Source: Nibricoccus sp. (lineage in GTDB: Bacteria > Verrucomicrobiota > Verrucomicrobiia > Opitutales > Opitutaceae). Taken from it: a DNA stretch of 64,000 bases. The stretch is taken from the NCBI GenBank assembly GCA_047602425.1, contig JASGHG010000001.1, forward strand, positions 3,840,001 through 3,904,000. Reading direction: 5' to 3'. Within the stretch, counting starts at the first letter, position 1. Every line of letters begins with the position of its first letter. Position numbers and translations under genes: made by a program. Below, piece by piece: positions 20,618-39,404 of the stretch. The notes under the pieces are model-generated. The model worked only from the letters and a program-made list of their open reading frames with translations. It ran no database searches and was not told the origin of the DNA.

Positions 20618-21931
20618 TGTTTTGTACCGGGTTGTGGGTAACACATGTACCGCTAGTGAGGTAACACTTTTCAACTCATGGAAGAAGGGCCATGGCCCTT
20701 CTTCCATGAGTTGGGACAACAAAAATACAATCGCGCGACGGCACGAGTTTGTGACGTTCGCGCTTGCGGGCTCGATCAGTATGGTGGCCTTGTGTGAGCG
20801 TTTTGGCGTCAGTCGCAAAACCGGTTACAAGTGGTTGAGGCGTTTCCATGCACAAGGGCCCGCTGGCCTGGAAGACCGGCAGCGTGCACGCGTACGTCGC
20901 AGCAACCAGACCTCATGTTCGGTGGAGACGCGTGTGGTGAAGCTGCGCACGAAGCATCCTACCTGGGGAGCGCGCAAACTACATCGCAGGCTCTGCGATC
21001 TGGGCCACACTTGCATGCCGGCGGTGAGTACCTTCGCACGCATTCTTCGCCGGCGTGGGTGCATTCACCCGCGCCACAGTGCCGCACACCAGCCGATGCA
21101 GTGTTTTGCCAGAGCCGAGCCCAATCAACTCTGGCAAATGGACTTCAAGGGCCACTTTGCCATGCAGCGCGGTGGCCGCTGCCATCCGCTCACGGTGCTC
21201 GACGACCACTCCCGCTTTTCCGTTGGGCTTGAAGCGTGTGCCAACGAGCAGACGGTGTGCGTGCGTGAGCGCTTGGAGCGCATCTTCACCTGCTACGGCC
21301 TGCCCGAACAGATCCTTTGCGACAACGGCCCTCCTTGGGGCGGAACAGGGCCGGAGTTCACCCAGCTCAGCGTCTGGTTGCTGCGCCTGGGCGTGGAGGT
21401 CATCCACGGCAGGCCGTTTCATCCTCAGACCCAGGGCAAAGACGAACGTTTCCACCGCACCCTCAAGGCCGATCTTCTGGACCGCCTCGACTGGCGCGAC
21501 CTCGCCCAGGCACAGCGACGCTTCGATGCGTACCGCCATCTCTACAATTATGACCGTCCACATGAAGCGCTTGATCTGGCCGTGCCAGCCTCCCGCTATC
21601 GCCCCAGTTCCCGCCGAATGCCAGCCAGGCTTCCCATCGCGCAGTATGAAGCCTCGGAGCTGGTCCACCTGGTGAAATCCAAGGGCGAGATCACCTTCCA
21701 AAACCGTTTCTTCTTCATCGGCCAGGCTTTCATCGGACTGCCTGTGGCGCTGCGACCCTGCGCAGCCCACGGCGTTTATCGGGTCTGCTACGCCGCATTT
21801 ACTCTCGGCCTTATCGATCTATCAAAACCAACCAATCTTCCCAAAGGCTGCTACCATCCCCTGCTTCGGCCTACTCATACACTGTAACCCCATTAGCGGT
21901 TCATCTGTTACCCTTGACCCGAATCTATACA
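20618..21931 (+). mobile_element. IS481-family insertion sequence (1314 bp)
   Basis: TGT...ACA ends; imperfect ~50-bp terminal IRs sharing CGGGT...GGGTAACA.ATG.ACCGCTA; 5-bp direct repeat CTCCG at 20613-20617 and 21932-21936. Confidence 0.9.
20706..21887 (+). CDS. IS481-family transposase
   Basis: FGVSRKTGYKW HTH; PNQLWQMDFKG, LDDHSR, DNG, HPQTQGKDERFHRT, YNYDRPHEAL rve/DDE core. Confidence 0.95.
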   Translation: MSWDNKNTIARRHEFVTFALAGSISMVALCERFGVSRKTGYKWLRRFHAQGPAGLEDRQRARVRRSNQTSCSVETRVVKLRTKHPTWGARKLHRRLCDLGHTCMPAVSTFARILRRRGCIHPRHSAAHQPMQCFARAEPNQLWQMDFKGHFAMQRGGRCHPLTVLDDHSRFSVGLEACANEQTVCVRERLERIFTCYGLPEQILCDNGPPWGGTGPEFTQLSVWLLRLGVEVIHGRPFHPQTQGKDERFHRTLKADLLDRLDWRDLAQAQRRFDAYRHLYNYDRPHEALDLAVPASRYRPSSRRMPARLPIAQYEASELVHLVKSKGEITFQNRFFFIGQAFIGLPVALRPCAAHGVYRVCYAAFTLGLIDLSKPTNLPKGCYHPLLRPTHTL

Positions 21932-22101: not shown

Positions 22102-23448
22102 ATGACCCACGACGCTGCTCTTCTTCGTCAGTATTTGGATGGTTCGGAAACCGCTTTTGCCGAACTGGTGCGGCTGCACATTGGAGCCGTTCACGGCACC
22201 GCGCTGCGCATGGTGGGTGGCGATGCGCATTTGGCGAACGATGTGACACAGAAAGTTTTCACCGGTCTCGCGCGCAAGGCCGCGAAACTCGTCGACCGTC
22301 CTGTGCTGCTCAGTTGGCTTTATCTCAGCACGCACTACGAAGCCGCGGCCACGGTGAGAGCCGAGCGGCGGAGGCGAACTCGTGAACAGAAGGCGCACGC
22401 CATGCAAGAAATCGAAACTCAAGGGAGCCCGGAACCCGATTGGACCGCACTTCGGCCGGTGATCGATGCGGCTCTGCTGGACTTGAAGGAGAGCGATCGT
22501 GACGCGCTGTTGTTGCGCTTTTTTCATTCACAAACTTTCGCGCAAGTGGGCGAGACGCTCGGACTGAGCGAGAATGCCGCTCGGATGCGCGTTGACCGGG
22601 CCGTCGACAAATTGCGCGATGTGCTGACGCACCGTGGCATTAAATCGACCGCCGCTGCGCTCGGCACCGTGATTGCGACGCAATTGGCCACCGCCGCACC
22701 CGGAGCGCTTGCGGCGACGGTCACGACTGCGGCATTGGCGGGCGCTGCGTCAACTGGTGCCGCCGCTGTGATTTTTATGGGCATGACAAAACTACAATGG
22801 GGCATCGCTGCGGCATTGGCGGTGACGGGAGGATCGGTTATGTGGTCCGAACACCAAACCGCTCAACAATTGCAGGCGGAAAATACCGCCTTGATTCAGC
22901 AGACGGCGGAAGTTTCGCGCTTAAAGACAGAAAATTCCAAATTGGAAGCGAACGCGCGCGCGGCGGAATTGTTGCGCCAACAGGCCAGCGCGTCCGAGGC
23001 GTTGCGAGCCGAGGAGGCGCGCCTGCGCAAAGAAATTCAGCGAATCATGACGGCGCGCAATGCCCAGTTGCTGGCGGGACGTCCGGCTCTGGCGGCTACA
23101 CCAGCACGTGCGCCAACTGCCGCCACGACGGTTGATGGCCTGCGGATTTACCGTTTGAGCGAACTGGACGTGAGACCTACGCCATCCGAGCAACGTGATC
23201 CCGAATTCCCGGGAGGACTCAAGATGGAGGGTTCGGCGGTGATCAGCTGCATTATTCGGCCCGACGGTTCGACCAGCGAATTGAAGGTGGAGCAGGCCAG
23301 CAGCGAGGCTTTTGCCGAGGCGACCAGAAAGGCGCTCGAAAAATGGAAATTCAAACCGGCAATGAAATCGGGTGAGGCGGTTTCTTCGCGCGTGACGGTG
23401 CCCTTTCAAATCGGCCTCAACCAACGAACGGTCCAGGAGTGGCTCTGA
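22102..23448 (+). CDS. ECF sigma factor-TM-coiled coil-TonB C-terminal domain fusion (copy 1)
   Basis: sigma2 (AFAELV..H, DVTQKVF, WLY); sigma4 (LLLRFF, GLSENAARMRV.RA); Ala-rich/TM linker; TonB_C-like LDVRP...PEFP...DG...KWKFKPAMKSGEAV. Confidence 0.85.
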   Translation: MTHDAALLRQYLDGSETAFAELVRLHIGAVHGTALRMVGGDAHLANDVTQKVFTGLARKAAKLVDRPVLLSWLYLSTHYEAAATVRAERRRRTREQKAHAMQEIETQGSPEPDWTALRPVIDAALLDLKESDRDALLLRFFHSQTFAQVGETLGLSENAARMRVDRAVDKLRDVLTHRGIKSTAAALGTVIATQLATAAPGALAATVTTAALAGAASTGAAAVIFMGMTKLQWGIAAALAVTGGSVMWSEHQTAQQLQAENTALIQQTAEVSRLKTENSKLEANARAAELLRQQASASEALRAEEARLRKEIQRIMTARNAQLLAGRPALAATPARAPTAATTVDGLRIYRLSELDVRPTPSEQRDPEFPGGLKMEGSAVISCIIRPDGSTSELKVEQASSEAFAEATRKALEKWKFKPAMKSGEAVSSRVTVPFQIGLNQRTVQEWL

Positions 23449-24197
23449 TGATGAAAAACACGAGAGGCATTTTCATTCTTTTGGTTCTGGCGGGTGTCTT
23501 AGGGGCATTCGTCTGGTTGAAAGTCGACACAGTCGCACGTCTGCGCGGGGAGCGAGCGCAACTCCGCGCAGACGTTGCCGACTTTACACGCCTGGCCGAG
23601 TTGAACGCTCGCTACAAAACCGCTCCGGCGATCGATTCAGCAAAACTGCAACGCGACGCGAATTCGGTGCCGGTGTTAAATGTGCGGATTGAGCAAATGA
23701 AGGAAACGCTGGCCCGCCTTTCCGCGCTGCCACCGCCGATACCGGAAACGGCTCCGGACTACACCGCGCTTTGGAAAAACGCTGGCCTCTCGACGCCGAC
23801 GAACACGTTGCACTCGATCATCTGGGCTTCGCTCAATGGCGATGTGGATGCGTTAGGCTCGATGCTGTTTTTCGATCAGGAAAGCCGCGAGGCTGTGGAG
23901 ACATTGTGGGCTGGTTTGTCCGAGGCGCAGCGGGCGCAGTACCCTACAGGACAAAAGCTCATGGCGACGCTGATTGCCGGACGTTTGACGCCCGCGCTTT
24001 ATCAGGCCGAATGGAGAGAGGAGACGCGAGAGCAGCCTGATGTGATAAAGGCGCGCTTCTTCCTGCACCGGGCCAATCCCAAGGGGATCGACCTCAAAGC
24101 GGTCTTGTTGAGTTTTCAACGACAAGGAGCGGACTGGCGGCTCATGGTGCCCAAATCCGTCGTCGCGGAGTTTCAGCAGACGTTACAATCGAAGTGA
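23448..24197 (+). CDS. Membrane-anchored hypothetical partner protein (copy 1)
   Basis: TGATG overlap with ECF1 stop; N-terminal TM, coiled coil, WKNAGLSTP..TLHSIIWA...GDVDAL. Confidence 0.75.
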   Translation: MMKNTRGIFILLVLAGVLGAFVWLKVDTVARLRGERAQLRADVADFTRLAELNARYKTAPAIDSAKLQRDANSVPVLNVRIEQMKETLARLSALPPPIPETAPDYTALWKNAGLSTPTNTLHSIIWASLNGDVDALGSMLFFDQESREAVETLWAGLSEAQRAQYPTGQKLMATLIAGRLTPALYQAEWREETREQPDVIKARFFLHRANPKGIDLKAVLLSFQRQGADWRLMVPKSVVAEFQQTLQSK

Positions 24198-24251
24198 ACG
24201 ATTGATTCCGGTTTTTGGCGGGGGGCATGAGCGATTTTCACGAGATTGGTC

Positions 24252-24316
24252 GTTGGGACGCCTAGATACGTCACACGCAAGCTGCACTGACGGACAACTC
24301 GGAAAGCCGTCCTTAC
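24252..24316. repeat. Degenerate copy of the REP doublet upstream of ECF1
   Basis: GTTGGGACGCCT..AGATACGTCA..CGGACAACTCGGAAAGCCGTCCTTAC aligns to 20601-20612 plus 21949-22000. Confidence 0.7.
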
Positions 24317-24381
24317 AAACGGGCGTCCTTACCACGGGCAACCTGTGTTCCAGCGATCAAGTTCGGATGATCTGAAAATTC

Positions 24382-24410
24382 TGTGCGGCTTTGTTGGTTG
24401 GCGGGTGCTT
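24382..24410 (+). promoter_or_regulatory. Candidate ECF autoregulatory promoter 2
   Basis: TGTGCG-N13-GCGG. Confidence 0.55.
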
Positions 24411-24422
24411 ATATCCAAAGCC

Positions 24423-25736
24423 ATGACAGACGATGCCGCACTTCTTCGCCGTTATCTCGATGGATCGGAGGCCGCGTTTGCGGAACTCGTGCAATGTCAC
24501 ATCGGCGCTGTTTATGGCACGGCTTTGCGCTTGGTCGCGGGCGACGCGCATCTGGCGGATGACGTGACGCAAAAGGTGTTCACCGGGCTGGCCCGCAAGG
24601 CTTCCTCCTTGGCCGACCGGCCCGTCCTGATCGGCTGGTTGTATTTAAGCACTCAATACGAAGCGGCGAAAGCGATCCGCTCCGAGCAGCGCTGGCGCAA
24701 CCGCGAACAAAAGGCTCATGTCATGAATGAAATCGAAAACCAGGGAGCCGTCGAGCCGGATTGGTCCTCCCTGCGTCCGGTCCTCGATTCGGCCATGCGC
24801 GATCTCAAGGAAGGCGACCGCGACGCGCTCCTCCTTCGTTTTTTTCAATCGCGCACACTCGCGGAAGTCGGCGAAGCCCTCGGCCTGAGCGAAAACGCTG
24901 CGCGCATGCGCGTGGATCGCGCACTCGAAAAACTGCACAGCCTGCTCGTGCGGCGTGGCATCAAATCCACCGCCACCGCTCTCGGCACGGTTTTGGCCGG
25001 TCAAGTGGTCACCGCCGCACCTGCTTCGCTTGCCGCAACGGTCACAACGACCGCACTGGCCGGAGCGGCGACGGCCACCGGCGCCACCATTGTATTTATG
25101 GGTATGACAAAATTCCAAGCTGGCGTCGCCGCCGCGATAGTGGTGGCAGGTGGATCGGCTCTTTGGTCCCAACGCGAAACCGGATCGCAGTTGCAGGCGG
25201 AAAATTCCGCCTTGGTTCAGCGAGCGACTGACATTTCACAGGCGAAAACCGAAAGCGCGCGGCTTGACGCTGAGACGCAGAGGATCGCCTTGCTTCGGCA
25301 GGAGGCGGCGAGACTCGACGCGCTGCGCGCCGAGGAAGCGGAGCTGCTCCAGGCATTGCGAGAGCGTGCGAAGCCCGCGGCGGATGCCAGCGTGCCCCTC
25401 CGGCAGACACCCGATGGTAAGCCGCTTTATACCATCAAGCAGCTCGATCAAATGCCCGTGCCCCGACTGCGCGTGCAGCCGGTTTATCCCCTCGAACTTA
25501 AAAAAATAGGCGTGGGCGGTGACGTGCTGGTTGAGTTCACCATCGCGCCGGATGGAGACGTCAAAGACGTCAACGTCGCGAAAGCCACGCACGAGGCGCT
25601 CGCCGCGGCGGCGCAGGAAGCCATTGTGAAATGGAAGTTTAAGCCCGGGCAAAAGGGTGGTCTACCGGTCAACGCGCGCCTGCAGCAGCCTTTTGTCTTT
25701 TCAATCGAGTACGACGATAACGCCGAGTGGTTTTGA
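24423..25736 (+). CDS. ECF sigma factor-TM-coiled coil-TonB C-terminal domain fusion (copy 2)
   Basis: Paralogue of 22102-23448; TonB_C: LDQMP..RVQPVYP...G.VLVEFTI.PDG.V...KWKFKPGQKGGLPV. Confidence 0.88.
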   Translation: MTDDAALLRRYLDGSEAAFAELVQCHIGAVYGTALRLVAGDAHLADDVTQKVFTGLARKASSLADRPVLIGWLYLSTQYEAAKAIRSEQRWRNREQKAHVMNEIENQGAVEPDWSSLRPVLDSAMRDLKEGDRDALLLRFFQSRTLAEVGEALGLSENAARMRVDRALEKLHSLLVRRGIKSTATALGTVLAGQVVTAAPASLAATVTTTALAGAATATGATIVFMGMTKFQAGVAAAIVVAGGSALWSQRETGSQLQAENSALVQRATDISQAKTESARLDAETQRIALLRQEAARLDALRAEEAELLQALRERAKPAADASVPLRQTPDGKPLYTIKQLDQMPVPRLRVQPVYPLELKKIGVGGDVLVEFTIAPDGDVKDVNVAKATHEALAAAAQEAIVKWKFKPGQKGGLPVNARLQQPFVFSIEYDDNAEWF

Positions 25737-25738
25737 AC

Positions 25739-26479
25739 ATGAAAAATCCCAAGGGAAACATCGTGTTGTTGGTTCTGGCGATGGTTGTCGGTTTTGGCCT
25801 TTGGTGGCAGGCAAAAACAAACCTGCGCCTCCGTGAAGAGCAGTCGCGCCTTAAGGAGCAGTCGGCCGAATCGAACCGGATAAAAGCGCTAAAAATGGAA
25901 TCTAAACCGACGACTGTATCCGCTGAGGAACTTCAAAAACTGAACGAGGCTGCGACCGAAGCGGCGGTGGTGCGTGAGCGAATCGCGGAGCTCAAGAAAA
26001 CGAATTCACAAATGTCGGCGACGGCGGCTGTTCCCCGACCTGTTCAGGAGCGTTGGAAAAATCTCGGACAGGCCTCGCCGCGCGATACGCTTCATTCGGT
26101 GATCTGGGCAGCGACGGGCGGAGAGGTGGATGCTCTGGTTTCGTTGCTCGCTTTTGACGCTGAAAGTCGTGCCGCTGCGGACAACATGTTTGCCTCCATT
26201 CCTCCTGAATCCCAGGCGCTGTTTCCCTCGGCGGATAAATTGGTGGCGACGATCATTGCCGGTCGTTTGCCGACAAATTTAACCGCAGCGGAAATCGTCG
26301 AACAAACCGAAGCCAGTTCAGACGCGATTCTCGCGAAGATTCGTCTCCAACGTTCACACAAGTCCAACGATGCGGTTCGTGAAGTGAACTTTCGTTTTCA
26401 ACGAACGGGAACAGACTGGCGAGTGGTGGTCCCGGCGAGCGTGATTGCGGAATTTACGCGTTCGTTGAAAGGGAAATGA
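25739..26479 (+). CDS. Membrane-anchored hypothetical partner protein (copy 2)
   Basis: Paralogue of 23448-24197 (WKN.G..SP..TLHSVIWA..GEVDAL; FQR.G.DWR..VP.SV.AEF). Confidence 0.75.
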   Translation: MKNPKGNIVLLVLAMVVGFGLWWQAKTNLRLREEQSRLKEQSAESNRIKALKMESKPTTVSAEELQKLNEAATEAAVVRERIAELKKTNSQMSATAAVPRPVQERWKNLGQASPRDTLHSVIWAATGGEVDALVSLLAFDAESRAAADNMFASIPPESQALFPSADKLVATIIAGRLPTNLTAAEIVEQTEASSDAILAKIRLQRSHKSNDAVREVNFRFQRTGTDWRVVVPASVIAEFTRSLKGK

Positions 26480-26574
26480 GCTAAACGGCCTGTTTTTGCG
26501 GCGTGGAAAGAGTTTCTCGGTCACGCAGGAGGTTTTGGGTATAATATAACCTAAGTTGCTATGTTATTGTTAAT

Positions 26575-27102
26575 TGCTTCGCTGTTTGAGCTCATTGCTT
26601 GGCTGTCAGCGGCGATTGTTTCGTTGTCAGTCTCAATTGCTAGACTGTTTGTCTCAATTGCTAGGCCGTTGATGGCCGTTGCGACGCCGTTCGTGGGCGT
26701 TGCTGAAGTGTCAGCGTCTGTTGCGCGAGTGTTCGTGCCCGTTGTTTGGCCGTCTGGATGCGTTGCTTGAGCGTCAGTGGCGATTGCGAACGTGTTCGTG
26801 TCAATTGTCAGACTGTCAGCGCGTGTTGTTTGGATGTCTGAGTGAGTTGCGATGCTGTCTGCACGGATTGTTTTCGTGTCTGAGTGAGTTGCTTCGGTGT
26901 TTGTGTGAGGTGCGACGATGTTCGTGTGAGGTGCGCGCGTGTCAGCGTGTGTTGTTAAGCTGTTCGGATCAGCTGCGACGGTGTCCGAGTGAGGTGCGAA
27001 GCGGTTTGAACGAGTTGCGACGCGGTTCGTGCGCGTTGCGCGGATGTCCGCGCACCTTGTCGAACGGTTCGGCTTTGTTGCGGAAGCGTCGGAGCGAGAT
27101 GC
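26575..27102. repeat. Degenerate tandem array of 25 x 21-nt units
   Basis: Unit TGY-N6-GTY-NG-N7 repeats without indels; TG at positions 1-2 and GT at 10-11 in all 25 units, G at 14 in 24/25. Confidence 0.85.
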
Positions 27103-27119
27103 GCAGCTGCGCGATGATC

Positions 27120-28787
27120 TTACGGCGCCTTCAACAGCTCCGGATGTCCGGCGCGGGCGAGATGGGTTTGGATCTTGGCGCGGGTTTCGGCGGAATTGTC
27201 GACAGAAACAATTTTTTCGAGCAACTCCGAGGCGTGGGCAAAATCACCCGCGCCGACCAAGGCTTCAAGGTCCTTGGACGCGGAGCGTGCGGCATGCTGT
27301 TTTAATCTCTGTATCTCGGCGGTGGGCAGGCCACCGAGAAGATCTGTATTGGAGACGGCGTTGAATTGGCGGACGATGGATTCGTAGGGATATGCGGAGA
27401 CTAACTCGTTGTAACGTTTCGCCTCCAGCAGCTGATCCTTGACGTCATACCCGAGGGTTTTTCGGCGCTTATCGTCCGGTGCCAACGAATCGAAAAGCGC
27501 GAGCGTTTTTTCCTGAGCGCCGAGGGAACGATTGAGAGTCGCAAAATCCTTCAAAGCATCGCGGTCCTTGGCATTTGCCAGAAGGCGTTGCTCAGCCTTG
27601 TCGCGTCGCTCCTGCAGCGCAGCCAGAGCCGGGGGATAGTTCCTTCCTAGTTCGGCAATCGAACTGAGTAGGAAGCTGCTGCGAACACCCCTGTACTTGT
27701 CCATCTGCGGCATTCCAGTGTCGAAGCACCAAAGGTAGTCGGCCAGCGCTTCGTCATACCGCCCGGCCCGAGCGAGCTGTTTGGCATTGTTGAAGCGGGC
27801 TTGGACAGATTCGTCGGTAATAATTTCCTTGGACGTCATGGCGGTCTTTTTATCGATGATGATCGATGAAGTGACGGAGAGAAGTTTTTCGTTGTCGTTG
27901 TCGGCCTCGTCGGCGCGTTTCTTTTCGGCGGCCAGTTGGGACTTCAGGCTATCGAGCTGGGTTTGAAACGCGACTTGGCGTTCGCGCATCGAAGCGGCTT
28001 CGGCGCGGGAAGTATGTAATTGCTGGTTTTGGTAAAGGGCGGTGCCGATGGCGATAAGGGCGGCGATGGTCGTGGCGGTGGCGATGAGTTTGGCGGAGGA
28101 CATGATTTTTAGAAGACTGAAGGCAGTGACGGCGACGGCGGTGGAAGCGAGCGCGGTGGACGTGATTGTGGCGCCGAGTTGGGCGGGCGCGGCGAGGGCG
28201 GCAGGGACGGCCAGAGTGGTGGCAAGCGCAGCGGCGGTGGATTTTACGCCCCGTCGGGCGAGGGAAGTTTCAAGTTGTTCGAGGGCTCGGGTGACGCGCA
28301 TGCGCGCGGCGTTTTCGCCGAGACGCAGGGTGTCGCCGATTTCTGAATACGGGCGGTTTTCGAAATAACGCAGGAGTACGGCCTCGCGGTCGTCGGGCTC
28401 AAGATCGGCGAGGGCATCGTCGATGACCGGGCGAATTTGCGACCAAGCCCGATCGTTGGCCTCGGCGGCGGTGAGTTCGTTCATCGCGTGGCACGTTTGT
28501 TCGCGCTGTACGCGGCGTTGTTCGGCGCGCATGAGTTCGCGTGCCTGGTTGCAGGCGGCGGTGTGCAGCCAGCCGGCGAGGTTCGGGTGGTTGACAAGCG
28601 AACCGGCTTTTTGAGCCAAAAGAGTGAACGTAGCCTGTGCGGCTTCCTCGGCGTTGTGGGAATGACCGTTGGTTTTCCGAAGCGCGGCGAAATAGACGAG
28701 GTTAAGATGCCGTTGCACGAGTTCGGCGAAGGCGTCATCGGCGCGGGTTTCGGCAAATCGGCGGAGCAGGGAGGCATCATCGTTCAT
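27120..28787 (-). CDS. Membrane-anchored ECF sigma factor with helical (TPR-like) C-terminal extension
   Basis: AFAELVQRH, WLH, LLRYFE, LGENAARMRV.RA, Ala-rich TM linker, coiled coil, GRYDEALADYLWCFD. Confidence 0.85.
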   Translation of the reverse strand: MNDDASLLRRFAETRADDAFAELVQRHLNLVYFAALRKTNGHSHNAEEAAQATFTLLAQKAGSLVNHPNLAGWLHTAACNQARELMRAEQRRVQREQTCHAMNELTAAEANDRAWSQIRPVIDDALADLEPDDREAVLLRYFENRPYSEIGDTLRLGENAARMRVTRALEQLETSLARRGVKSTAAALATTLAVPAALAAPAQLGATITSTALASTAVAVTAFSLLKIMSSAKLIATATTIAALIAIGTALYQNQQLHTSRAEAASMRERQVAFQTQLDSLKSQLAAEKKRADEADNDNEKLLSVTSSIIIDKKTAMTSKEIITDESVQARFNNAKQLARAGRYDEALADYLWCFDTGMPQMDKYRGVRSSFLLSSIAELGRNYPPALAALQERRDKAEQRLLANAKDRDALKDFATLNRSLGAQEKTLALFDSLAPDDKRRKTLGYDVKDQLLEAKRYNELVSAYPYESIVRQFNAVSNTDLLGGLPTAEIQRLKQHAARSASKDLEALVGAGDFAHASELLEKIVSVDNSAETRAKIQTHLARAGHPELLKAP

Positions 28788-31194: not shown

Positions 31195-31335
31195 TTGAAC
31201 AGAAGGCCGCGAAGGGAACGAAGCGTTTTTTGGGACTGCTCAGTCGAGTGTCTTGGCTCGGTTGAAGAATCGAGCAACGAACCTTTGTGCGGGTAGGTGA
31301 CAGCCGCTTCGTTTCCGTCGTTGGCTTCTGTTAAA
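31195..31335. repeat. Imperfect 31-bp inverted repeats with 9-nt GAAG periodicity
   Basis: 31195-31225 vs reverse complement of 31305-31335: 25/31. Confidence 0.65.
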
Positions 31336-34300
31336 TGGTTTTCCGTTTGCGCAGAGCGAAGACGAGGGCGAGGGCGCCGAGGAACCAAGTGCTCGGGGCG
31401 CCACCACCGCCACCACCGCTGGGTGGCGGGACTGAGCCGGAGGAGGAGCCGCCGCCTGACGAGGACGAACTGCTGGAAGACGAACTCGAGCTGCTCGACG
31501 ATGAACTGGAGGAGGACGACGAACTCGATGAAGAAGAACTGGAACTACTCGACGAACTGGACGATGAGGAACTGCTGCTGCTGGACGAGGAAACATTAAT
31601 AACGAAGGGCGAGCTGACAATCGTGGTTCCGCCACCGCTCGTCAGTACGGCCGTGTAGGTGCCGGAGTGGTTCGTTTGTGCATTGGCGACGGTGTACGAC
31701 AGTGAGTTTGCGCCGGGGATATCGAAGTTGTTGAGGCGCCATTGGAAGCCGGTGATGGCGGACACGCTCGTGACAGAGTTAAGGGTGAACGAGGAGCCAG
31801 GGACAACATTGGAAGTCGGGCCGGTAATACTGGCCGTAAAGACCGGCAGCGACGGCGACGCGGCGCCGAAGGTGTTGCCGGCGTAGCTTACGATGGTGGT
31901 GGCGACGTCGGCCGTCGGAATAAGCGCATAGGAGTAGTTCGGTGTGAACACGATGTCGTTGCCGGTGTCGGGCGCGATGCCGGTGCAGTTGGTATAGCTG
32001 TTCCCAATGATGCGCATGCGTCCACCTGCGAGCGTGGTGTCGACGTTTTCCTTGTAGATGGGACTTTTCACGGCGACATAAGCGTTCTGCTCGGAAAAGA
32101 ACTGCGAGAGATCGCGCGCGTTGGTAGCGTAGCTGTTGCCCGGGGTGTTCCAGTAATTGTTGAAAAGATGCACGTGCCCGTAGGTGCCGGATGGCATGCG
32201 CTGATCGCACAGGGTGGACCACCAATTGTGGTGGAGGGTGATGCGGAGCGGTTTGGTCTCAGCGCCGACGCTGCCCGAAATCATGGTGAAGCGGTGATCG
32301 GCCTGGGCGGGCGTGTAGTAGAATTCGCCATACGAAACGGTGACGTTGTCGGCGCCGTTGTTGATGTCGCACATGCCGTCGGCGCAATTGAAGAAGGTGC
32401 AATGCGTGACGTAGATATTGTTGGCGCCGTCGCGGATGGTGATGCCGTCACCGCCATCGATATAGCGGCCGTCGGTGCCGAGCGTGGTGCCGGGATTGGT
32501 GATATTGAGACCACGGATGATGACGTTGGAAATATTGCCGCTGCCGAGATCGAGGCAGCCGATGATAGTGGCGTCGCCGTCGATGCCCTGAATCGTTTTG
32601 TTGGAGCGCACGGCGACCTTGCCGCCGGAAAGCGTGAGCGTTCCGGAGATGGTGATGACCGCGGGGGCGGTGCCTTCAACCAAGGTTTTGAATTGCGCCG
32701 CAGTGGTCACAACCACGGGTGCAAGTGAACCGCCGCCGGTGGCGGAAGAGGCGAAGCCATCGGGCACGAGCGAGGCGTAGACGGGATTGACCGTGAGCGT
32801 TGCGGCAGCGCTGGTGGTGGAACCGGAAGTGTTGGTGATAAGGACACGGTACTGACCTGCCGCGGCTGTTTGGGCCTGAGCGATGGTATAGGATGGATTG
32901 GTCGCGCCGGTGATATTGGCGAAATTGGCGCCGCTATCGGTGCTCTTTTGCCATTGATAGTAGAGCGTGGTATCGCCGGTGGCCACGACAGTGAAGGTGG
33001 CTGAATCGCCCACGTTGATGGACTGCGAGGCGGGCGCGGAGGTAACAACAGGCGTGGCGGAACCGGCGACGACGCGGAGACCGAGTATGTTGCTCATGCT
33101 GGAACCGGTGGAGTCCGTCACTGTGTAGGTGAACCGGGCGAGGCCGACAGCGCCAACGGGCGGCGTGAAGGTGGCGGTTTTGCCGTCGGTGCCGAGTGCA
33201 ACCGTGCCGTTGACCGCACCGGAGACGGTGAAGACGGGACTGCTGGTGTAACCGCGGGCAAGAAGCGAAAGGTCAATGGAGACCGTGCCATTTTGCGGGC
33301 AGTCGGCATGCGGAGCGGCCATCCAATTTAGGAAGTCTTCGAGGTTCGTGTAACCGTCGCCATCCGGATCGGCATTGGCTTCGGAGAAATCGCCCGCGGC
33401 GGAGTTGGGGTTGAAGCCCTTCGCTTTTTCCCACCAGTCGGGCATGCCGTCGCCATCGGAGTCGTAGCCGGAGGCGCGGCTGACGGTCGGATAGTTTTCC
33501 CAGCCGCCAACGTCGGTTTCCACGTCGGGGAAGCCGTGTTTGCCAGTCACGCTGCCGCTATAGGTGTAAGTGCCGGTTAGGGTTTCGTTGACGATGCGGA
33601 TGTCGTGGTCGTCGAGCGCGGGCTGGTTGCAACCGACATCGGAGAGGACGCGCTTGTAGGCGTTGCCCGCGGTTTGGGTTGTGACATACGATGGGAAGAA
33701 TGCGGTGGTGACGAAAGTCTCGTAGGTCGGGGTGGGCACGCCGCTGGAAACGGTGTAGCGACGGCCGGTGTCCTGGGTGGTTTCGTCGAAATAACCAGGC
33801 ATGACATTGCCGGCGAAGTAGGCGCGCTGGGAACCGGCGAAGTCATTTTCGTGATTCATCGTCAGGGCGTACTGGAACAGTGTCGTGCCACTTCCAGGTT
33901 TGTAGTAGTTGTTGACGAAGTCCAATTCCTTGGTGCCGCCATCGGTGGTGCGCGAGCCCCAGTTGTAGACAACATTGTTGGTGATATCGAGGCGTCCGGC
34001 AAAGGCGGCGGAGGCGTCGAGTCCGCCAGCGAGCGACCAATTCCGGCCGTAGCAGTGGGCGAGGAGGTTGTGATGGAAACTGCCGATATCCCCACCGATG
34101 GAGGCGGCGTAGCCATGTTCCGTGCCGGCGAGATTGTCGAGGAACACGTAGTTTGGATGCAGGGCTTTGTTGAGGGCCTCCGAGATCAGCGTGTTTTGCA
34201 ACGTGATGTTTTTGGCGGAACGAGAGCTGAAGGCCTCGTCGATCGTCCAACTGATCGAACAATGGTCGATAATGCAATGGCTGCTACCCTGCATGCCCAT

Positions 34301-37300
34301 GCCGTCAACCGCCACGGCGACTTGCGCGCTGACAGGAGTGCCACTGGTGCCGTTGCTATTGGTGGAAATCATGACGGTCTCCAGCGTGCGACCGGGGCGG
34401 GAGCGAAGGTTGCGAATAATCACGTCGTCGGCACCGCTGAGACCGATCGTATATTTTTTAATGCAGATGCCTTTGCCGGGAGCGGTTTGACCGGCAAGGG
34501 TGATATAGTCGCTGTTGATGATGATCTTGGAGTTGAGCGTGATGAGACCCGCGATATCGAACACGATCGTGCGCGGCCCGGTTTCCTGTTCGATGGCGTA
34601 GCGCAGGGTTCCTGGGACCGGCGTGTCGGACGTTGTGTAATCGGCAAGCGAAGTCACATGGACGACTTTGCCGCCACGTCCGCCGCGGGCGAAACGACCA
34701 TAACCTTCCGCTCCCGGGAAGGCCAGGTGGCGCGGACGGAAGTACCAGACGGTGCCCTTGCTGACATTGCCCGAGGCATCGATCTCGTCGATGCGCCAGT
34801 AGTAGGTCGCGAACGGATTGGAGGCGGTTGCGGTGTAGCTAGTCGTGGTTTGGTTGCCCTTGAATTCGGCCGAAGCGTGGGTGGCGGATTGAACGGCGGC
34901 TTTGGAAGTCCCGAAATAGACGTCGTGCGAAACGGCCGTGCCGGCGGTGGCGGCAGCCCAGCTCAGCACGGTGGTTCCGCTGTCACAGTCGACATGTTCG
35001 TCGGCGTCGACGGGGGCGGGGGTGTTGGCGATGCGGGTGGAGTTGGGTGTGTCGATTTCAAAGCCGTTGATGACAACGTTCTTGGTTGTGGCGGTGGACG
35101 TGGTGTCGGCGGCAAAGAGGATCGTGGTGACGTCGGTCGGGGCGCCGACGGTGAATTCCAGATAGGAAATGGGTGCGGTGGTATCGGTGGCGCGTATGGT
35201 CGGCGTAACGGACGTGACATAGGTGCCATTGAGGGAAACCTGGATTGGCGCCATCGAAACAAGCGCAGTCTGGGCGTCGCCGGCGTTGTGGTAGGTGAGC
35301 AAACTATGACTGCCGGGGGCAAGACCGGTGATCGTCATTTGAATTTGGCCCCCGGCATTGGCGACGGCGGGGGCGACAGTCACGCCATCGCTGACGAGCT
35401 TCTGGCCCTCGGTGGTGGTTCCGGTTGCGTAATAGGTAAACGTAAGCCCGGTGCCGCCGGCGGTCTGGGAGGCGGCGGTTTGCGCGAGGCTGACGCTGAC
35501 GGTAGTGCCGGCGGCGGAGGTGAAGGTCTGCGTGACAGAAGCGGTTCCGGTGGTGGAAACGCCCGTGCTGGCTGCGGTGGTCCACTGCGTGTAGCCCGTG
35601 GCGGTGGTCGAGGCGCTGTTTTTGCCTTCGCGGTTGATATCGACCTTGAGCACGTCGGCTCCGCTCGAGCTGGAGGAACCGGAGGAGGATGAAGACGAAG
35701 AGGACGAACTACTGGACGAAGAACTCGAGCTGCTGGAAGACGAGGATGAGGAACTCGACGAAGACGAACTCGAGCTGCTCGATGATGAAGAGCTTGAAGA
35801 AGAGCTGCTTGAAGACGAACTGCTCGATGAAGAAGATCCGCCGTCGACGGTCAGTGTGGCGGCATTGCTGCTGGTGGAACCGGCGGAATTAGTGATAGTG
35901 ACTGTATAATTGGCGGCATCGGCAGCGGTGACTGAAGCGATGGTGTAGCTGCTCGTCGTAGCACTGGGGATGACCGCACCGTTTTTGTACCATTGATAGC
36001 TTAATGTTTGGGCGCCATTGGCGATGACCGAGAAAACGGCTTGTTGGCCGGACGCCAAAGATTGTAAGACCGGTTGGGAATGGATGATAGGAAGCACAGC
36101 GGGTACCCAGCCATCGCCTGCGGCGGTAGCGGGTGTGCTATCGCTCGTGGTGCCGAAGAAATAGGCGGGATTGCGCAGAAGGATGGCTTCGGCGGACGTA
36201 AGCTGGCGGCTGTAGGAAGCCCGCTGACTTATATCGACAGGCGTGGTGCCAGTGAGGTCGGTGGATTGATATTCCCAGTTGCGCGTGTTCGCGATGTAGG
36301 TGGCATTGATGAAGGAGGAAGACCAGCCGACAGCGGAAACATGAGCATCCATCCGGCAATTGATGAAAATCGGATTTCCGTACGTGGTGGCGTCGACGGA
36401 CGTGCGGCCGAGACTGTAACTGAACGAGCTGCCTGACGGGCGGGTAATCGTGCAATCGATGAAACCGAAGCCGAACTTGTTGGCAGGTGTGCGCGCCTGG
36501 GTCAGGTCGCCGCCATTTATGCAACGCAGTTCGCAATTCTTGAACATGGCGGTGCCGCCTCCCCAAACGAAATCGGTGTCGCCTTGAATGAGGCAATCTT
36601 GGAAATAGTTGCCGGCACCGAGTAGCAGCGTGTCTTGAAAACTCTTGATCGTGCATCCGAGAAAACAATTGCGCGCGCCATCGCTCCGCAAAGCCTCGGC
36701 CTGGCCGCCGCCCTTCGGTGTACTATTGTTAATGGTTAGGTTTGCGATGACGAGGTCGTTGCCCTTTGCGAAGAAACTCACGCGCAGGGTGGTGTCGCTA
36801 TTGAGAGGAGCGTTGTTGGGATATTCGACGACGGTTTGGTCGCGGTTTTCGCCGACGAGGGTGATTTGGTGGCGATTGCCGTAGTTAATGATCTCCTCGT
36901 AGATGCCATTGCGCAGATTAATCCGCACCGGCGTGGTGTTGCCCGTCGGGATGAAATCCAAGGCTCCCTGCAACGTGGAGAAATCGCCGCTGCCGTCGCT
37001 GGCCACGGTGAAGGTCGTTTGGGTGGGCACGCTGGTTGGAGCCGAGGACTTCGTGGTGAATGTCCACGCGGTTTTTCCAGTGACGGCGGGCAATGTGGCG
37101 CCGGTGGAGTCGAGGATGGCGCCTGGTTCGATATTTACATAATAAGAAGTGTTGTAACCCAGCACGGTACCAGACTTCAGCGTGATGCGGGCCTCGTTGC
37201 CGACGATCAATACCGGGAAGTATTTATAATTAGTGCTGCCGCCGGAGCCGCCGATATTTTTGGTTTGGTAGCGATAAGCGATGGACGCATTCGTGAACAG

Positions 37301-39154
37301 CGTGAGGGCCGCGAGGTCGATCGTTTCAACGACAGAATCGTCCGATGTTTTACGGACTGTAATTTTGCCGGTTTCGCCGAGGCGGGGTGCTGACGTGAAA
37401 CGCACGACAAGTGGCGTGTCGGGATTGATGGCTGTTGCACTGTTGCTCGGTCCGAAAACAACGGTCTGGGCGGTGGAAATACCGACATAAACGACATTGC
37501 TGGTGACCGAACCGGCAGAATTTGACGCCGTTACCGTATAATATCCGGAGTTTGCTGCGGAGAAATTGGAGATTTGGATCGTGTCTGTAGTGGCGCCGCT
37601 GATACCGGAGCCATCGCTCACGGCGGCTCCATTGAGCTTCCAGACGTAAGTTGTGGGAACGGGCGTGCCCGATCCCGCGTCCGCGACCACGCTGATCGAG
37701 GTCGTCGCGCCAGCCGTGACGACGGTGCTCAAGGGCTGGGTGGTGATAACAGGTTTTACGGTAAGGGTCGCCGCGTCGCTCACGGCATCAGGAGGCACGC
37801 CATTCTGAACCTTTACGCGGTAGTAACCGGCATCCGCGGTTTGGACATTGAGGATTTGCAGCTGAGACGAGTTCGAGCCAGGGATATCGGTGAACGTGAC
37901 GTTGTCTGAGCTCTTCTGCCAAGAATAGGTGAGAGGCGAGGTACCACTGGCGACGACACTAAAAGTTACAGTTCCGTTAATGGATGCTGTTTGGCTCACA
38001 GGCTGGCTGGAAATCCCAGGAGCGACCGCCGAGGAAGAAAGCGAAAGTGCGCACGTGGTGCTGGTTGTCGGTCCGCCCTGACTCGTTACGACCACGTCGT
38101 ACGATCCTTGATCGGCATTTGTCACGCCGTTCAGTACCAGGGTGGCGGTCGCCGCGCTGGGGTTGGCCACCGTATCGATGGGTGCTCCGTCTTTGCGCCA
38201 GCGATAGGCGAGATCGGTGAAAGGACTGGCGAGGCCAACGGTGCCGTTGAGAACCGCCGTCGCGGGGATCGAAGCCGTGCCGCCGGAGACGACAGTCATT
38301 GTCGGTGGCGGCTGGGCTGTGATGGTTGCGAGCGGGAAACGAATGATTTGGAAACCATTCAGGAAATTCTGCCCGCTGGTATGTTTTGACTGGGTGATGA
38401 CGAGCGTACCGGTGCCGTCCGATTTCCCATGAAGAACATTCCAGCCATTGCCGATAGCGATTGGATTTCCATTTGCATCCAGAACCGAAACGGGAGAAGC
38501 CAGACCGGCGCTGAGTGCGGATGCGGGATTTGTGCTCCATACATTGGCAGCGGCCAAAGTAACAGTTGTCCCTTGGTTGGTGGCATTTCCGGAGCCGTAA
38601 AAGTAAACGTCGTAAGCGGCATTCGCGTCGGGAAGGCCGGCGATTGTATAAACAATGGAATTTTCGCCCCGCTGCTGACGCCATGCACTGCCCATCAAGC
38701 CCGCGGGATTGGGGCTCGCGCCGGACTGGCTGACGTTGGATATGCCATCGTTGTTCGACGCGGCGAAATTGATCGTGACATTGACGGTGACCGGACTGGC
38801 GGCGCCTGTTGAATCGACCAGGCTTTTGGGAGCCGCGTAAAGGTTGTAGGTGCCGAGAGCGCTCGCGGCCTTGGGATTTCCGATATTGCCGGGTGGATTC
38901 AGCACCGAGGTGACGGCGGGAAATTCATTCCAAATGATGCCGGTGTTGGTCTGCGCTGCCGCGCTGTAGCTTCCTCCGGCCGGAGGTGCAATTGTGGCCG
39001 TGGCGGCTGCCGCGGTATTGCTGCTGAGATGCACAAAATAGCCGCGTCCGCTTTGGGCATGAACAGGCAACGCGACAAAAACAAGGCCCAGCATTACGAA
39101 GAATGTTTTGGCGATTGAATGAGGATAGGGCCTGGTGGGGACGGTGTGGGGCAT
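31331..39154 (-). CDS. Giant secreted multi-enzyme pectin degrader: Ig domains, CE8 pectin methylesterase, two PL1 pectate lyases, poly-Ser linkers, GlyGly-CTERM-like tail
   Basis: CE8: VASDGSGDFSTLQ, QAEAL, QDTL, DFVWG, LGR; PL1: AFPGAEGYG..ARGGRGG, IDHCS; second PL1: SNKTIQG, GDGI, DGMCD, TLHHNWW, QRMP; tail GGGGGAPSTWFLGALALVFALRKRK; start uncertain (39154 or 39181). Confidence 0.88.
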   Translation of the reverse strand: MPHTVPTRPYPHSIAKTFFVMLGLVFVALPVHAQSGRGYFVHLSSNTAAAATATIAPPAGGSYSAAAQTNTGIIWNEFPAVTSVLNPPGNIGNPKAASALGTYNLYAAPKSLVDSTGAASPVTVNVTINFAASNNDGISNVSQSGASPNPAGLMGSAWRQQRGENSIVYTIAGLPDANAAYDVYFYGSGNATNQGTTVTLAAANVWSTNPASALSAGLASPVSVLDANGNPIAIGNGWNVLHGKSDGTGTLVITQSKHTSGQNFLNGFQIIRFPLATITAQPPPTMTVVSGGTASIPATAVLNGTVGLASPFTDLAYRWRKDGAPIDTVANPSAATATLVLNGVTNADQGSYDVVVTSQGGPTTSTTCALSLSSSAVAPGISSQPVSQTASINGTVTFSVVASGTSPLTYSWQKSSDNVTFTDIPGSNSSQLQILNVQTADAGYYRVKVQNGVPPDAVSDAATLTVKPVITTQPLSTVVTAGATTSISVVADAGSGTPVPTTYVWKLNGAAVSDGSGISGATTDTIQISNFSAANSGYYTVTASNSAGSVTSNVVYVGISTAQTVVFGPSNSATAINPDTPLVVRFTSAPRLGETGKITVRKTSDDSVVETIDLAALTLFTNASIAYRYQTKNIGGSGGSTNYKYFPVLIVGNEARITLKSGTVLGYNTSYYVNIEPGAILDSTGATLPAVTGKTAWTFTTKSSAPTSVPTQTTFTVASDGSGDFSTLQGALDFIPTGNTTPVRINLRNGIYEEIINYGNRHQITLVGENRDQTVVEYPNNAPLNSDTTLRVSFFAKGNDLVIANLTINNSTPKGGGQAEALRSDGARNCFLGCTIKSFQDTLLLGAGNYFQDCLIQGDTDFVWGGGTAMFKNCELRCINGGDLTQARTPANKFGFGFIDCTITRPSGSSFSYSLGRTSVDATTYGNPIFINCRMDAHVSAVGWSSSFINATYIANTRNWEYQSTDLTGTTPVDISQRASYSRQLTSAEAILLRNPAYFFGTTSDSTPATAAGDGWVPAVLPIIHSQPVLQSLASGQQAVFSVIANGAQTLSYQWYKNGAVIPSATTSSYTIASVTAADAANYTVTITNSAGSTSSNAATLTVDGGSSSSSSSSSSSSSSSSSSSSSSSSSSSSSSSSSSSSSSSSSSSSSSSSSSSSGSSSSSGADVLKVDINREGKNSASTTATGYTQWTTAASTGVSTTGTASVTQTFTSAAGTTVSVSLAQTAASQTAGGTGLTFTYYATGTTTEGQKLVSDGVTVAPAVANAGGQIQMTITGLAPGSHSLLTYHNAGDAQTALVSMAPIQVSLNGTYVTSVTPTIRATDTTAPISYLEFTVGAPTDVTTILFAADTTSTATTKNVVINGFEIDTPNSTRIANTPAPVDADEHVDCDSGTTVLSWAAATAGTAVSHDVYFGTSKAAVQSATHASAEFKGNQTTTSYTATASNPFATYYWRIDEIDASGNVSKGTVWYFRPRHLAFPGAEGYGRFARGGRGGKVVHVTSLADYTTSDTPVPGTLRYAIEQETGPRTIVFDIAGLITLNSKIIINSDYITLAGQTAPGKGICIKKYTIGLSGADDVIIRNLRSRPGRTLETVMISTNSNGTSGTPVSAQVAVAVDGMGMQGSSHCIIDHCSISWTIDEAFSSRSAKNITLQNTLISEALNKALHPNYVFLDNLAGTEHGYAASIGGDIGSFHHNLLAHCYGRNWSLAGGLDASAAFAGRLDITNNVVYNWGSRTTDGGTKELDFVNNYYKPGSGTTLFQYALTMNHENDFAGSQRAYFAGNVMPGYFDETTQDTGRRYTVSSGVPTPTYETFVTTAFFPSYVTTQTAGNAYKRVLSDVGCNQPALDDHDIRIVNETLTGTYTYSGSVTGKHGFPDVETDVGGWENYPTVSRASGYDSDGDGMPDWWEKAKGFNPNSAAGDFSEANADPDGDGYTNLEDFLNWMAAPHADCPQNGTVSIDLSLLARGYTSSPVFTVSGAVNGTVALGTDGKTATFTPPVGAVGLARFTYTVTDSTGSSMSNILGLRVVAGSATPVVTSAPASQSINVGDSATFTVVATGDTTLYYQWQKSTDSGANFANITGATNPSYTIAQAQTAAAGQYRVLITNTSGSTTSAAATLTVNPVYASLVPDGFASSATGGGSLAPVVVTTAAQFKTLVEGTAPAVITISGTLTLSGGKVAVRSNKTIQGIDGDATIIGCLDLGSGNISNVIIRGLNITNPGTTLGTDGRYIDGGDGITIRDGANNIYVTHCTFFNCADGMCDINNGADNVTVSYGEFYYTPAQADHRFTMISGSVGAETKPLRITLHHNWWSTLCDQRMPSGTYGHVHLFNNYWNTPGNSYATNARDLSQFFSEQNAYVAVKSPIYKENVDTTLAGGRMRIIGNSYTNCTGIAPDTGNDIVFTPNYSYALIPTADVATTIVSYAGNTFGAASPSLPVFTASITGPTSNVVPGSSFTLNSVTSVSAITGFQWRLNNFDIPGANSLSYTVANAQTNHSGTYTAVLTSGGGTTIVSSPFVINVSSSSSSSSSSSSSSSSSSSSSSSSSSSSSSSSSSSSSSSSSSSSSGGGSSSGSVPPPSGGGGGGAPSTWFLGALALVFALRKRKTI
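31458..31592 (-). repeat. Poly-serine linker (mixed Ser codons)
   Basis: Long Ser run before the C-terminal sorting tail. Confidence 0.85.
35663..35836 (-). repeat. Poly-serine linker (mixed Ser codons)
   Basis: Long Ser run between the CE8 half and the PL1 half. Confidence 0.85.
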
Positions 39155-39404
39155 GGCGAGAAACGGTTTATCAATGCGCAAGCGGACCTGCGAAAATTTA
39201 GCTGCGATCTGGCAGTTGGGGGAGGGAGGGGCTGGATGGCCGTGTGAAAAATCACGGCTGGTGATGCACGCTCAGCAAAAGCACAGGCTTGCGGAACGGG
39301 CAACGGGAGCCTAGTTCACATCGTTGACCAAAGTCGGGGAAACACCCCGGGCCTGTCATGGGAAATCCATTTGCGCGAATGAGAGCTGTTCGTAACGTTG
39401 GATT

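Follow-up and report, generated by a model that had tools for sequence, protein, structure and literature searches.

CRISPR, TIGR and VIPR were all found through repeat arrays that lie beside an unnamed protein gene. TIGR arrays belong to a Nop-domain Tas protein and consist of 36-nt units with box C/D motifs. Helically phased degenerate repeats beside the gene of their binder are known from type II/III plasmid centromeres and iterons (parC-ParR, tubC-TubR), while minisatellites, STRR heptamer repeats and REP/MITE elements are dispersed, intergenic and lineage-specific, with gain and loss of whole units. In VIPR, the vrRNA alternates fixed trinucleotides with variable slots in 9–16 repeats beside the single gene of the Vipr protein (10.64898/2026.04.26.720920), which, according to the abstract of a companion paper, polymerises along the repeats. 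A genome-wide survey of periodic intergenic arrays gives an 18-nt entropy period for TIGR-Tas; its section 2.3 names periods of 5, 7, 8, 10, 18 and 60–79 nt, none of 21 among them, and the survey has 66 clusters outside the main bands (10.64898/2026.10.21.760802). Our literature search, which covered few subscription papers, turned up no account of arrays of period 21 paired with helical genes; the supplements of that survey could list some.

We analysed a stretch of 64,000 nt from Nibricoccus sp. (the window, C1:3840001–3904000 of genome G000) in which a 21-nt repeat array lies between two convergent genes (Table 1). The array is an orphan element of an apparently undescribed class that pairs such arrays with helical proteins. 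The original prediction, made from the letters alone, had counted 25 gap-free units, and both the count and the absence of indels hold. It had also taken TGY (positions 1–3), GTY (10–12) and G14 of the unit as fixed. The two trinucleotides are indeed present in 25/25 units (T1, G2, G10 and T11 invariant, positions 3 and 12 always Y), but G14 reaches 24/25. Position 21 is T in 20/25 units, and the mean identity between units is about 11–12 of 21 positions (~55%). Autocorrelation peaks at lags 21 (0.575), 42 (0.55) and 63 (0.59), the last slightly above the first, compared to 0.18–0.33 at all other lags; lag 7, at 0.25, reveals no 7-nt period. Degenerate units extend the array at both ends, to about 27110 on the far side. 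The minus strand (C 35%, G 20%) is unstructured, the folding of either strand being little better than that of shuffles (z −1.55 and −2.06). Rfam returned three chance-level matches alone for the array (E 1.7–4.8), and no inverted arms or terminal repeats were seen in the array copies compared. The TAA(G/A)T word at the array end also terminates the C1:4543 kb copy, the one in G004 and those of the metagenome loci L181, L182, L187 and L189, and is absent at the end of the C1:2085 kb copy. The predicted TATAAT is present, and a promoter scan near the array gave no full sigma-70 site.

Table 1. Features of the array and its surroundings (window coordinates).
Feature	Position	Strand	Remark
ECF-type sigma factor with C-terminal extension	27120..28787	-	upstream of the array on the array's strand
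250-aa partner gene of the second ECF-TonB_C operon	25727..26479	+	convergent
Core array, 25 x 21-nt degenerate units, RAC-N6-RCA (TGY-N6-GTY on plus)	26575..27099	-	orphan cassette copy; strand from the gene-linked copies L189/L181, L220
Degenerate last unit, in register	26554..26574	-	on the gene-proximal side of linked copies
Partial first unit	27100..27110	-	about 10 nt past the stop codon of the third ECF gene
TAAGT at array end	26552..26556	+	
TATAAT hexamer	26540..26545	+	without a matching -35; not conserved in paralogues
Stop-free heptad frame without canonical start	26551..27243	-	attributed to the fixed bases rather than to a gene

As had been predicted, the locus is not a CRISPR. 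CRISPR combines a conserved repeat of 23–47 nt with unique acquired spacers, a design absent here; the present unit has 21 nt with six or seven fixed bases, is common to several genomes and has no Rfam match. The likeness to VIPR is in the short fixed trinucleotides, the variable slots and the one adjacent protein gene, whereas the VIPR period is 5 (GGY/NN), and lag 5 is at background in the window array. TIGR-Tas likewise has two short conserved motifs per unit that separate variable segments, but the present array has no period of 18 or 36 nt, no Rfam match, and no Pfam Nop match among 115 members of the partner families or eight single proteins. Plasmid centromeres and iterons resemble the class in their helically phased direct repeats, here on a strict 21-nt grid, beside the gene of a putative binder. 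In contrast to them, the present arrays are chromosomal, occur as many types in one genome, and have no NTPase or Rep among 59 of 77 listed neighbour frames.

The original prediction had tied the array to the ECF operons whose convergence it occupies. In G001, a congener with a 72% complete genome, the same convergent gene pair is separated by a gap of about 113 nt with a GTAG hairpin and without an array. The array was therefore gained here or lost in G001, and the ECF genes do not require it; as its paralogues also sit in unrelated contexts, the tie is not supported. The window holds three ECF-type sigma factors with long C-terminal extensions (22102–28787), two of which have TonB_C at the end, each with an unnamed partner gene of 250 aa behind it. 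The hairpin at the array-free site (the G001:C492 gap in L254) belongs to a GTAGGG-headed REP-like family with 201 words in the present genome (G000). An IS481-type transposase is found at window 20622–21887, and its near-identical copy (G000:C1:4544092–4545357) lies beside the 4543 kb paralogue of the array, which is there directly adjoined by an array of a second 21-nt type. Judged by eye, window 31331–39181 encodes a 2616-aa secreted-type protein with long poly-serine linkers and a PEP-CTERM-like tail.

A genome-wide search for similar arrays, which the original prediction had proposed, revealed 30 period-21 regions, against 0–1 at each of the periods 12, 15, 18, 24, 27, 30 and 33. This excess indicates that the array is not due to chance. 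Several of the 30 fall in coding repeats, and 24, about two dozen, were treated as intergenic. The consensus differs from array to array within the genome. The window motif itself is present at three other sites (C1:2085 kb, 4543 kb and, as a partial near-copy, 4823 kb) and in 2/60 relatives, G004 of the same genus and G041 of the same order; L168 and L169 from the scan of all species are the two G041 arrays and were counted once. Motif-bearing records and homologues are named Opitutia or Verrucomicrobiota. BLAST of the array over 401 genomes of the class was insensitive (three weak matches beyond the own genome, one of them real). A strict three-unit pattern found only two loci over all species genomes, so the range of the motif is probably underestimated. 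A two-unit pattern gave at least 13 metagenome loci; among the matches listed, four were true arrays (L181, L182, L187 and L189) and nine looked like chance or coding matches. A loose five-unit pattern in viral contigs gave 120 loci, nearly all of them uniform coding repeats and none of the window type. Identical units are shared by four genomes or metagenomes. L181 and L189 are separated by a one-unit indel, and L182 and L187 are near-identical orphan arrays. A nearly uniform 21-nt array of about 13 units (L267, G384:C103:14118–14390), with an A/C-rich stretch behind it but no helical gene that could be recognised, appears young and is possibly an early stage of such arrays.

Several other arrays of this genome lie directly upstream of small unnamed genes, of a 120-aa type (A1), a 223-aa type (A2, A3) and a 240-aa type. 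The layout of the class, of which we are highly confident, is a cassette of 8–25 degenerate units on a strict 21-nt grid and, roughly 20–600 nt downstream on the same strand, the gene of a stand-alone, all-helical protein (a 120-aa hairpin type or a 220–250-aa bundle type). We compared periods of 10–30 upstream of these genes and called an array where the best period was 21 with a score of at least 0.17. Period 21 was best in 19/21 loci of the A1 and 223-aa families, and 18/21 reached the score; the 21 loci are 16/17 and 5/6 from two locus sets, the two omitted being second pieces of split genes. Removal of four genes first found through their arrays left 14/17 with upstream arrays. At the same score, the downstream control gave 0/21 loci for the two helical families, and the background of ordinary genes with an upstream period-21 signal was 5/250. 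The class spans at least two phyla, a homologue on a plasmid of the cyanobacterium Kovacikia having the same array-then-gene layout, and one family alone exceeds 1000 representatives (1091 of the 223-aa type at E ≤ 0.001, clustered at 50% identity). The Kovacikia array (L256) alternates two or three unit types, with a higher-order period of 42–63 nt. Four tblastn searches of plasmid and phage records returned one match; two scans for the helical proteins in viral contigs and one in phage records found none.

At least eight such cassettes, of different consensus, stand in G000:C1 at about 134, 917, 994, 1770, 2561, 3345, 4442 and 5058 kb, with weaker ones at 342, 1277 and 3647 kb. The one at G000:C1:917456–920437 lies, by eye, beside an integron-integrase-like ORF. 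Several cassette genes are broken by stops or a frameshift. Collinear copies of the 3345 kb gene's array stand without a gene at 60 kb and 848 kb, which makes orphan arrays normal for the class. In 30 loci, no conserved promoter motif was found in the array-gene spacers or upstream of the arrays, and no recurring neighbour gene or partner enzyme among 59 of 77 listed neighbour frames. A CA(A/G)nnA(C/T)TTA word, which we take to recall dif-like Xer motifs, follows the array in 4/30 loci (L226 and L175 among the spacers) and precedes it in none on that strand.

Both long types of partner protein were modelled as all-helical, without strands (pLDDT 92 and 87). Foldseek gave no match at E ≤ 0.001 in the PDB or the viral library, and the best VIA Z of 9.1 is ordinary for helical bundles and no proof of a new fold. 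The proteins matched neither a meaningful family in Pfam, NCBIfam or PADLOC nor any family or fold that binds nucleic acids, and no ribbon-helix-helix or HTH domain was found. There is a weak likeness to DUF6261 (PF19775), presumably linked to HagB, with an Atlas feature score of 0.87 and a model TM of 0.51/0.58, under the bar of the tool; PF19775 matched none of 115 family members and nothing in this genome.

The partner of the window motif itself was found in the metagenome loci. In both L189 and L181, a gene lies some 600 nt downstream of the array on its RAC-N6-RCA strand; the full-length version of this gene encodes P0151, a distant relative of the 223-aa family (hhalign 66%, E 6e-5). The P0151 subfamily (A4) is present in 17/401 genomes of the class. 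A period-21 array precedes the gene in 16 of 30 A4 loci returned from 36 matches, and a borderline downstream signal occurs in 1/29. The 14 loci without an upstream array include many partial matches, and also full-length genes (L224, L227 and L236 among them). In G215, a RAC-N6-RCA array lies 211 nt before an A4 gene, and thus the window motif type precedes this subfamily in two independent cases, L189 and G215. The five best profile matches to the window array all precede A4 genes on the same strand (r 0.86–0.53). The array of L219, the gene with the highest score in the subfamily, is unlike that of L189 (r 0.37). Motif and A4 gene occur together in the same 3 of 61 relatives, two of the three being congeners, and neither was found in the other 58. 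The window array accordingly reads on the minus strand, without its gene: profiles of all three families recovered the L189 gene but had no match in the 64 kb of the window or next to ten further orphan loci. The closest A4 gene of this genome (G000:C1:373353–374048, 45% identity) is without an array, as is the best A4 match in G004. The G000 gene stands 230 nt after what is, by eye, a response-regulator/GGDEF-like gene.

The consensus of an array follows the subfamily of its protein. Array and protein similarity correlate with a Spearman coefficient of 0.30 over 465 non-independent pairs, and mean array similarity is 0.58 for the closest proteins and 0.30 for unrelated ones. Taken together, the constant spacing, the few fixed bases and this match between consensus and subfamily look like a lattice for cooperative protein assembly. 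A phased protein-binding lattice was among the inferences of the original prediction, and it is also our best reading, with binding putative. We judge it somewhat probable that the window array represents the non-coding half of a two-part cassette, copied without the gene, and that the cognate helical protein binds to it as a phased lattice. The same modest degree of confidence applies to the mechanism, as read from sequence comparison: the protein would assemble on the array in a cooperative manner, with a binding unit every 21 nt, and would read only a few fixed bases, which would preserve the spacing and let the other positions drift. The gene without an array at C1:373353–374048 might encode a product that binds the orphan arrays in trans, and the likely outcome would be that the protein is controlled or sequestered by its own array (autoregulation or sponge). 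Covariation of array and protein is, however, expected from simple co-inheritance, and broken cassette genes are what selfish or neutral DNA would show; both count against a lattice. Whether DNA or single-stranded RNA would be bound is nearly balanced. We lean slightly to DNA, since 21 nt equals two helical turns and the RNA is unfolded; the case for RNA comes from the strict co-orientation with the gene, the short spacers and the orphans that mostly follow same-strand genes. If binding is confirmed, nucleic acids would be recognised here in a new way, and the class could serve as a source of orthogonal parts; one complete genome supplies cognate and non-cognate protein-array pairs. More tentatively, and here doubt outweighs belief, there may be a widespread, undescribed class of nucleoprotein systems whose small all-helical proteins polymerise on degenerate 21-nt arrays, with a sparse code for each subfamily, more than ten orthogonal pairs in one genome, and free arrays that act in trans as decoys, antitoxin-like RNAs or guides.

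Another reading, which we hold to be unlikely, is that the array RNA neutralises a harmful or defensive helical protein in the manner of type III toxin-antitoxin systems (ToxIN, CptIN, TenpIN), orphans supplying extra antitoxin through read-through. The linked copies share with these systems tandem repeats upstream of a single same-strand gene, and the spacer is 49–126 nt in 7/30 loci, with no promoter enrichment there. The RAC-N6-RCA strand also follows a same-strand gene in 5/8 orphans as counted by script (L182 and L187 left out), or 7/8 without two antisense shadow frames. Some cassette neighbours are of conflict type (AAA_21, Tse2-like, DUF4062 and NTP_transf_2), although most of the 59 are ordinary or unnamed. 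The present repeats are, however, short, degenerate and unfolded, pseudoknots being outside the fold model, and their units are about 55% alike, unlike the near-identical pseudoknot repeats of the known systems. They have no Rfam match, and the proteins match neither a ToxN, CptN or TenpN endoribonuclease nor any other nuclease family in Pfam, NCBIfam or PADLOC.

A similarly small share of our confidence goes to a selfish or neutral minisatellite, spread with REP-like hairpins or into the same gaps, in which whole-unit slippage keeps the register and no protein now reads the array. The arrays, like minisatellites, STRR, REP and MITE elements, are dispersed, intergenic and lineage-specific, and gain and lose whole units, as the indel between L181 and L189 exemplifies. 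The hairpin in place of the array in G001, the REP-like words within 700 nt of 9/24 arrays compared to 57/798 control gaps (from crude gene calls), the young orphan of G384 and the neutral-looking substitutions fit as well. What this account leaves unexplained is the excess at period 21 only, the six or seven positions that stay fixed across families while others are randomised, and the position ahead of a single class of protein genes in two phyla. The 7-nt period of STRR and the inverted arms or terminal repeats of REP/MITE elements are not seen, and the link to one protein class is tight.

It is quite improbable that the array is a VIPR-like guide RNA with a non-contiguous code, in which protein subunits would hold the fixed trinucleotides and the variable slots of 6 and 9 nt would address a target. 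VIPR is a precedent for short fixed motifs that alternate with variable slots beside one protein gene, but it is phage-borne and has a RAMP fold. Here the modelled proteins are all-helical, the loci are chromosomal, with none in viral contigs by two protein scans or in phage records by one, and no structured tail was seen. The slots are inherited, with the same units in four genomes or metagenomes. Four slot-joining rules gave 0–1 matches in the own genome, the same as shuffles, which lends no support to the idea that variable slots serve as spacers.

Still less probable, and largely refuted, is a heptad coiled-coil gene (N at position d) or its remnant on the minus strand, possibly made by frameshifting from the ECF gene, which the original prediction had offered as a less likely alternative. 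Of the two open frames it described, the minus frame is open for its 230 codons, but a TGA inside the array restricts the open part of the plus LxxC frame to 26673 onwards; neither has a Pfam match. The minus frame is stop-free in all three long copies of this genome (chance of no stop 0.16, 0.81 and 0.04), and in the window a TAG comes right after the array. It is broken by stops in G004, G041 and L189 and by a frameshift at C1:2085 kb, however, and different frames are open in different copies. Over 170 units (nine arrays, two pairs of them near-copies), it contains 6 stops against 6.8 expected from column shuffles, and GCA or ACA, which make up 10% of Ala/Thr codons in the long ORFs of the genome, in 162/170 units; fixed bases fall on third codon positions. 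Between close copies, 5 codons have changed synonymously and 25 non-synonymously, a neutral ratio, and synonymous variation in one frame with a proper start, as an ordinary gene would show, was not found. The plus LxxC frame has 15 stops against 46.7 under column shuffling; we attribute this low count to a putative dependence between neighbouring bases in these 170 units. Among 30 gene-linked arrays (L204, L207, L208 and L228, weak, partial or nearly uniform, left out), a sense frame is open in 24, compared to 24.5 under a Markov model, which may overfit, or 18.8 under column shuffling, and an antisense frame in 22, compared to 23.9 and 18.1. The window array is non-coding, and the constraint acts at the nucleotide level, as first proposed. 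Many annotated heptad-repeat hypothetical proteins may be false gene calls over such arrays.

That the array loads Rho as a C-rich tract and so ends the convergent ECF transcripts is hardly credible: the minus strand is C-rich and unstructured right after a stop codon, but the A+C content of linked arrays spans 0.40–0.66, the congener does without an array, and Rho loading is not known to need 21-nt phasing. Four terminator-like hairpins near the array are weak, against 2.3 expected. Elsewhere in the genome, a 3' remnant of a P0151-type gene (G000:C1:847789–848460) lies beside an orphan of the 3345 kb array type, in the opposite orientation to the linked copy, and a gene that by eye is TIR-like adjoins it.
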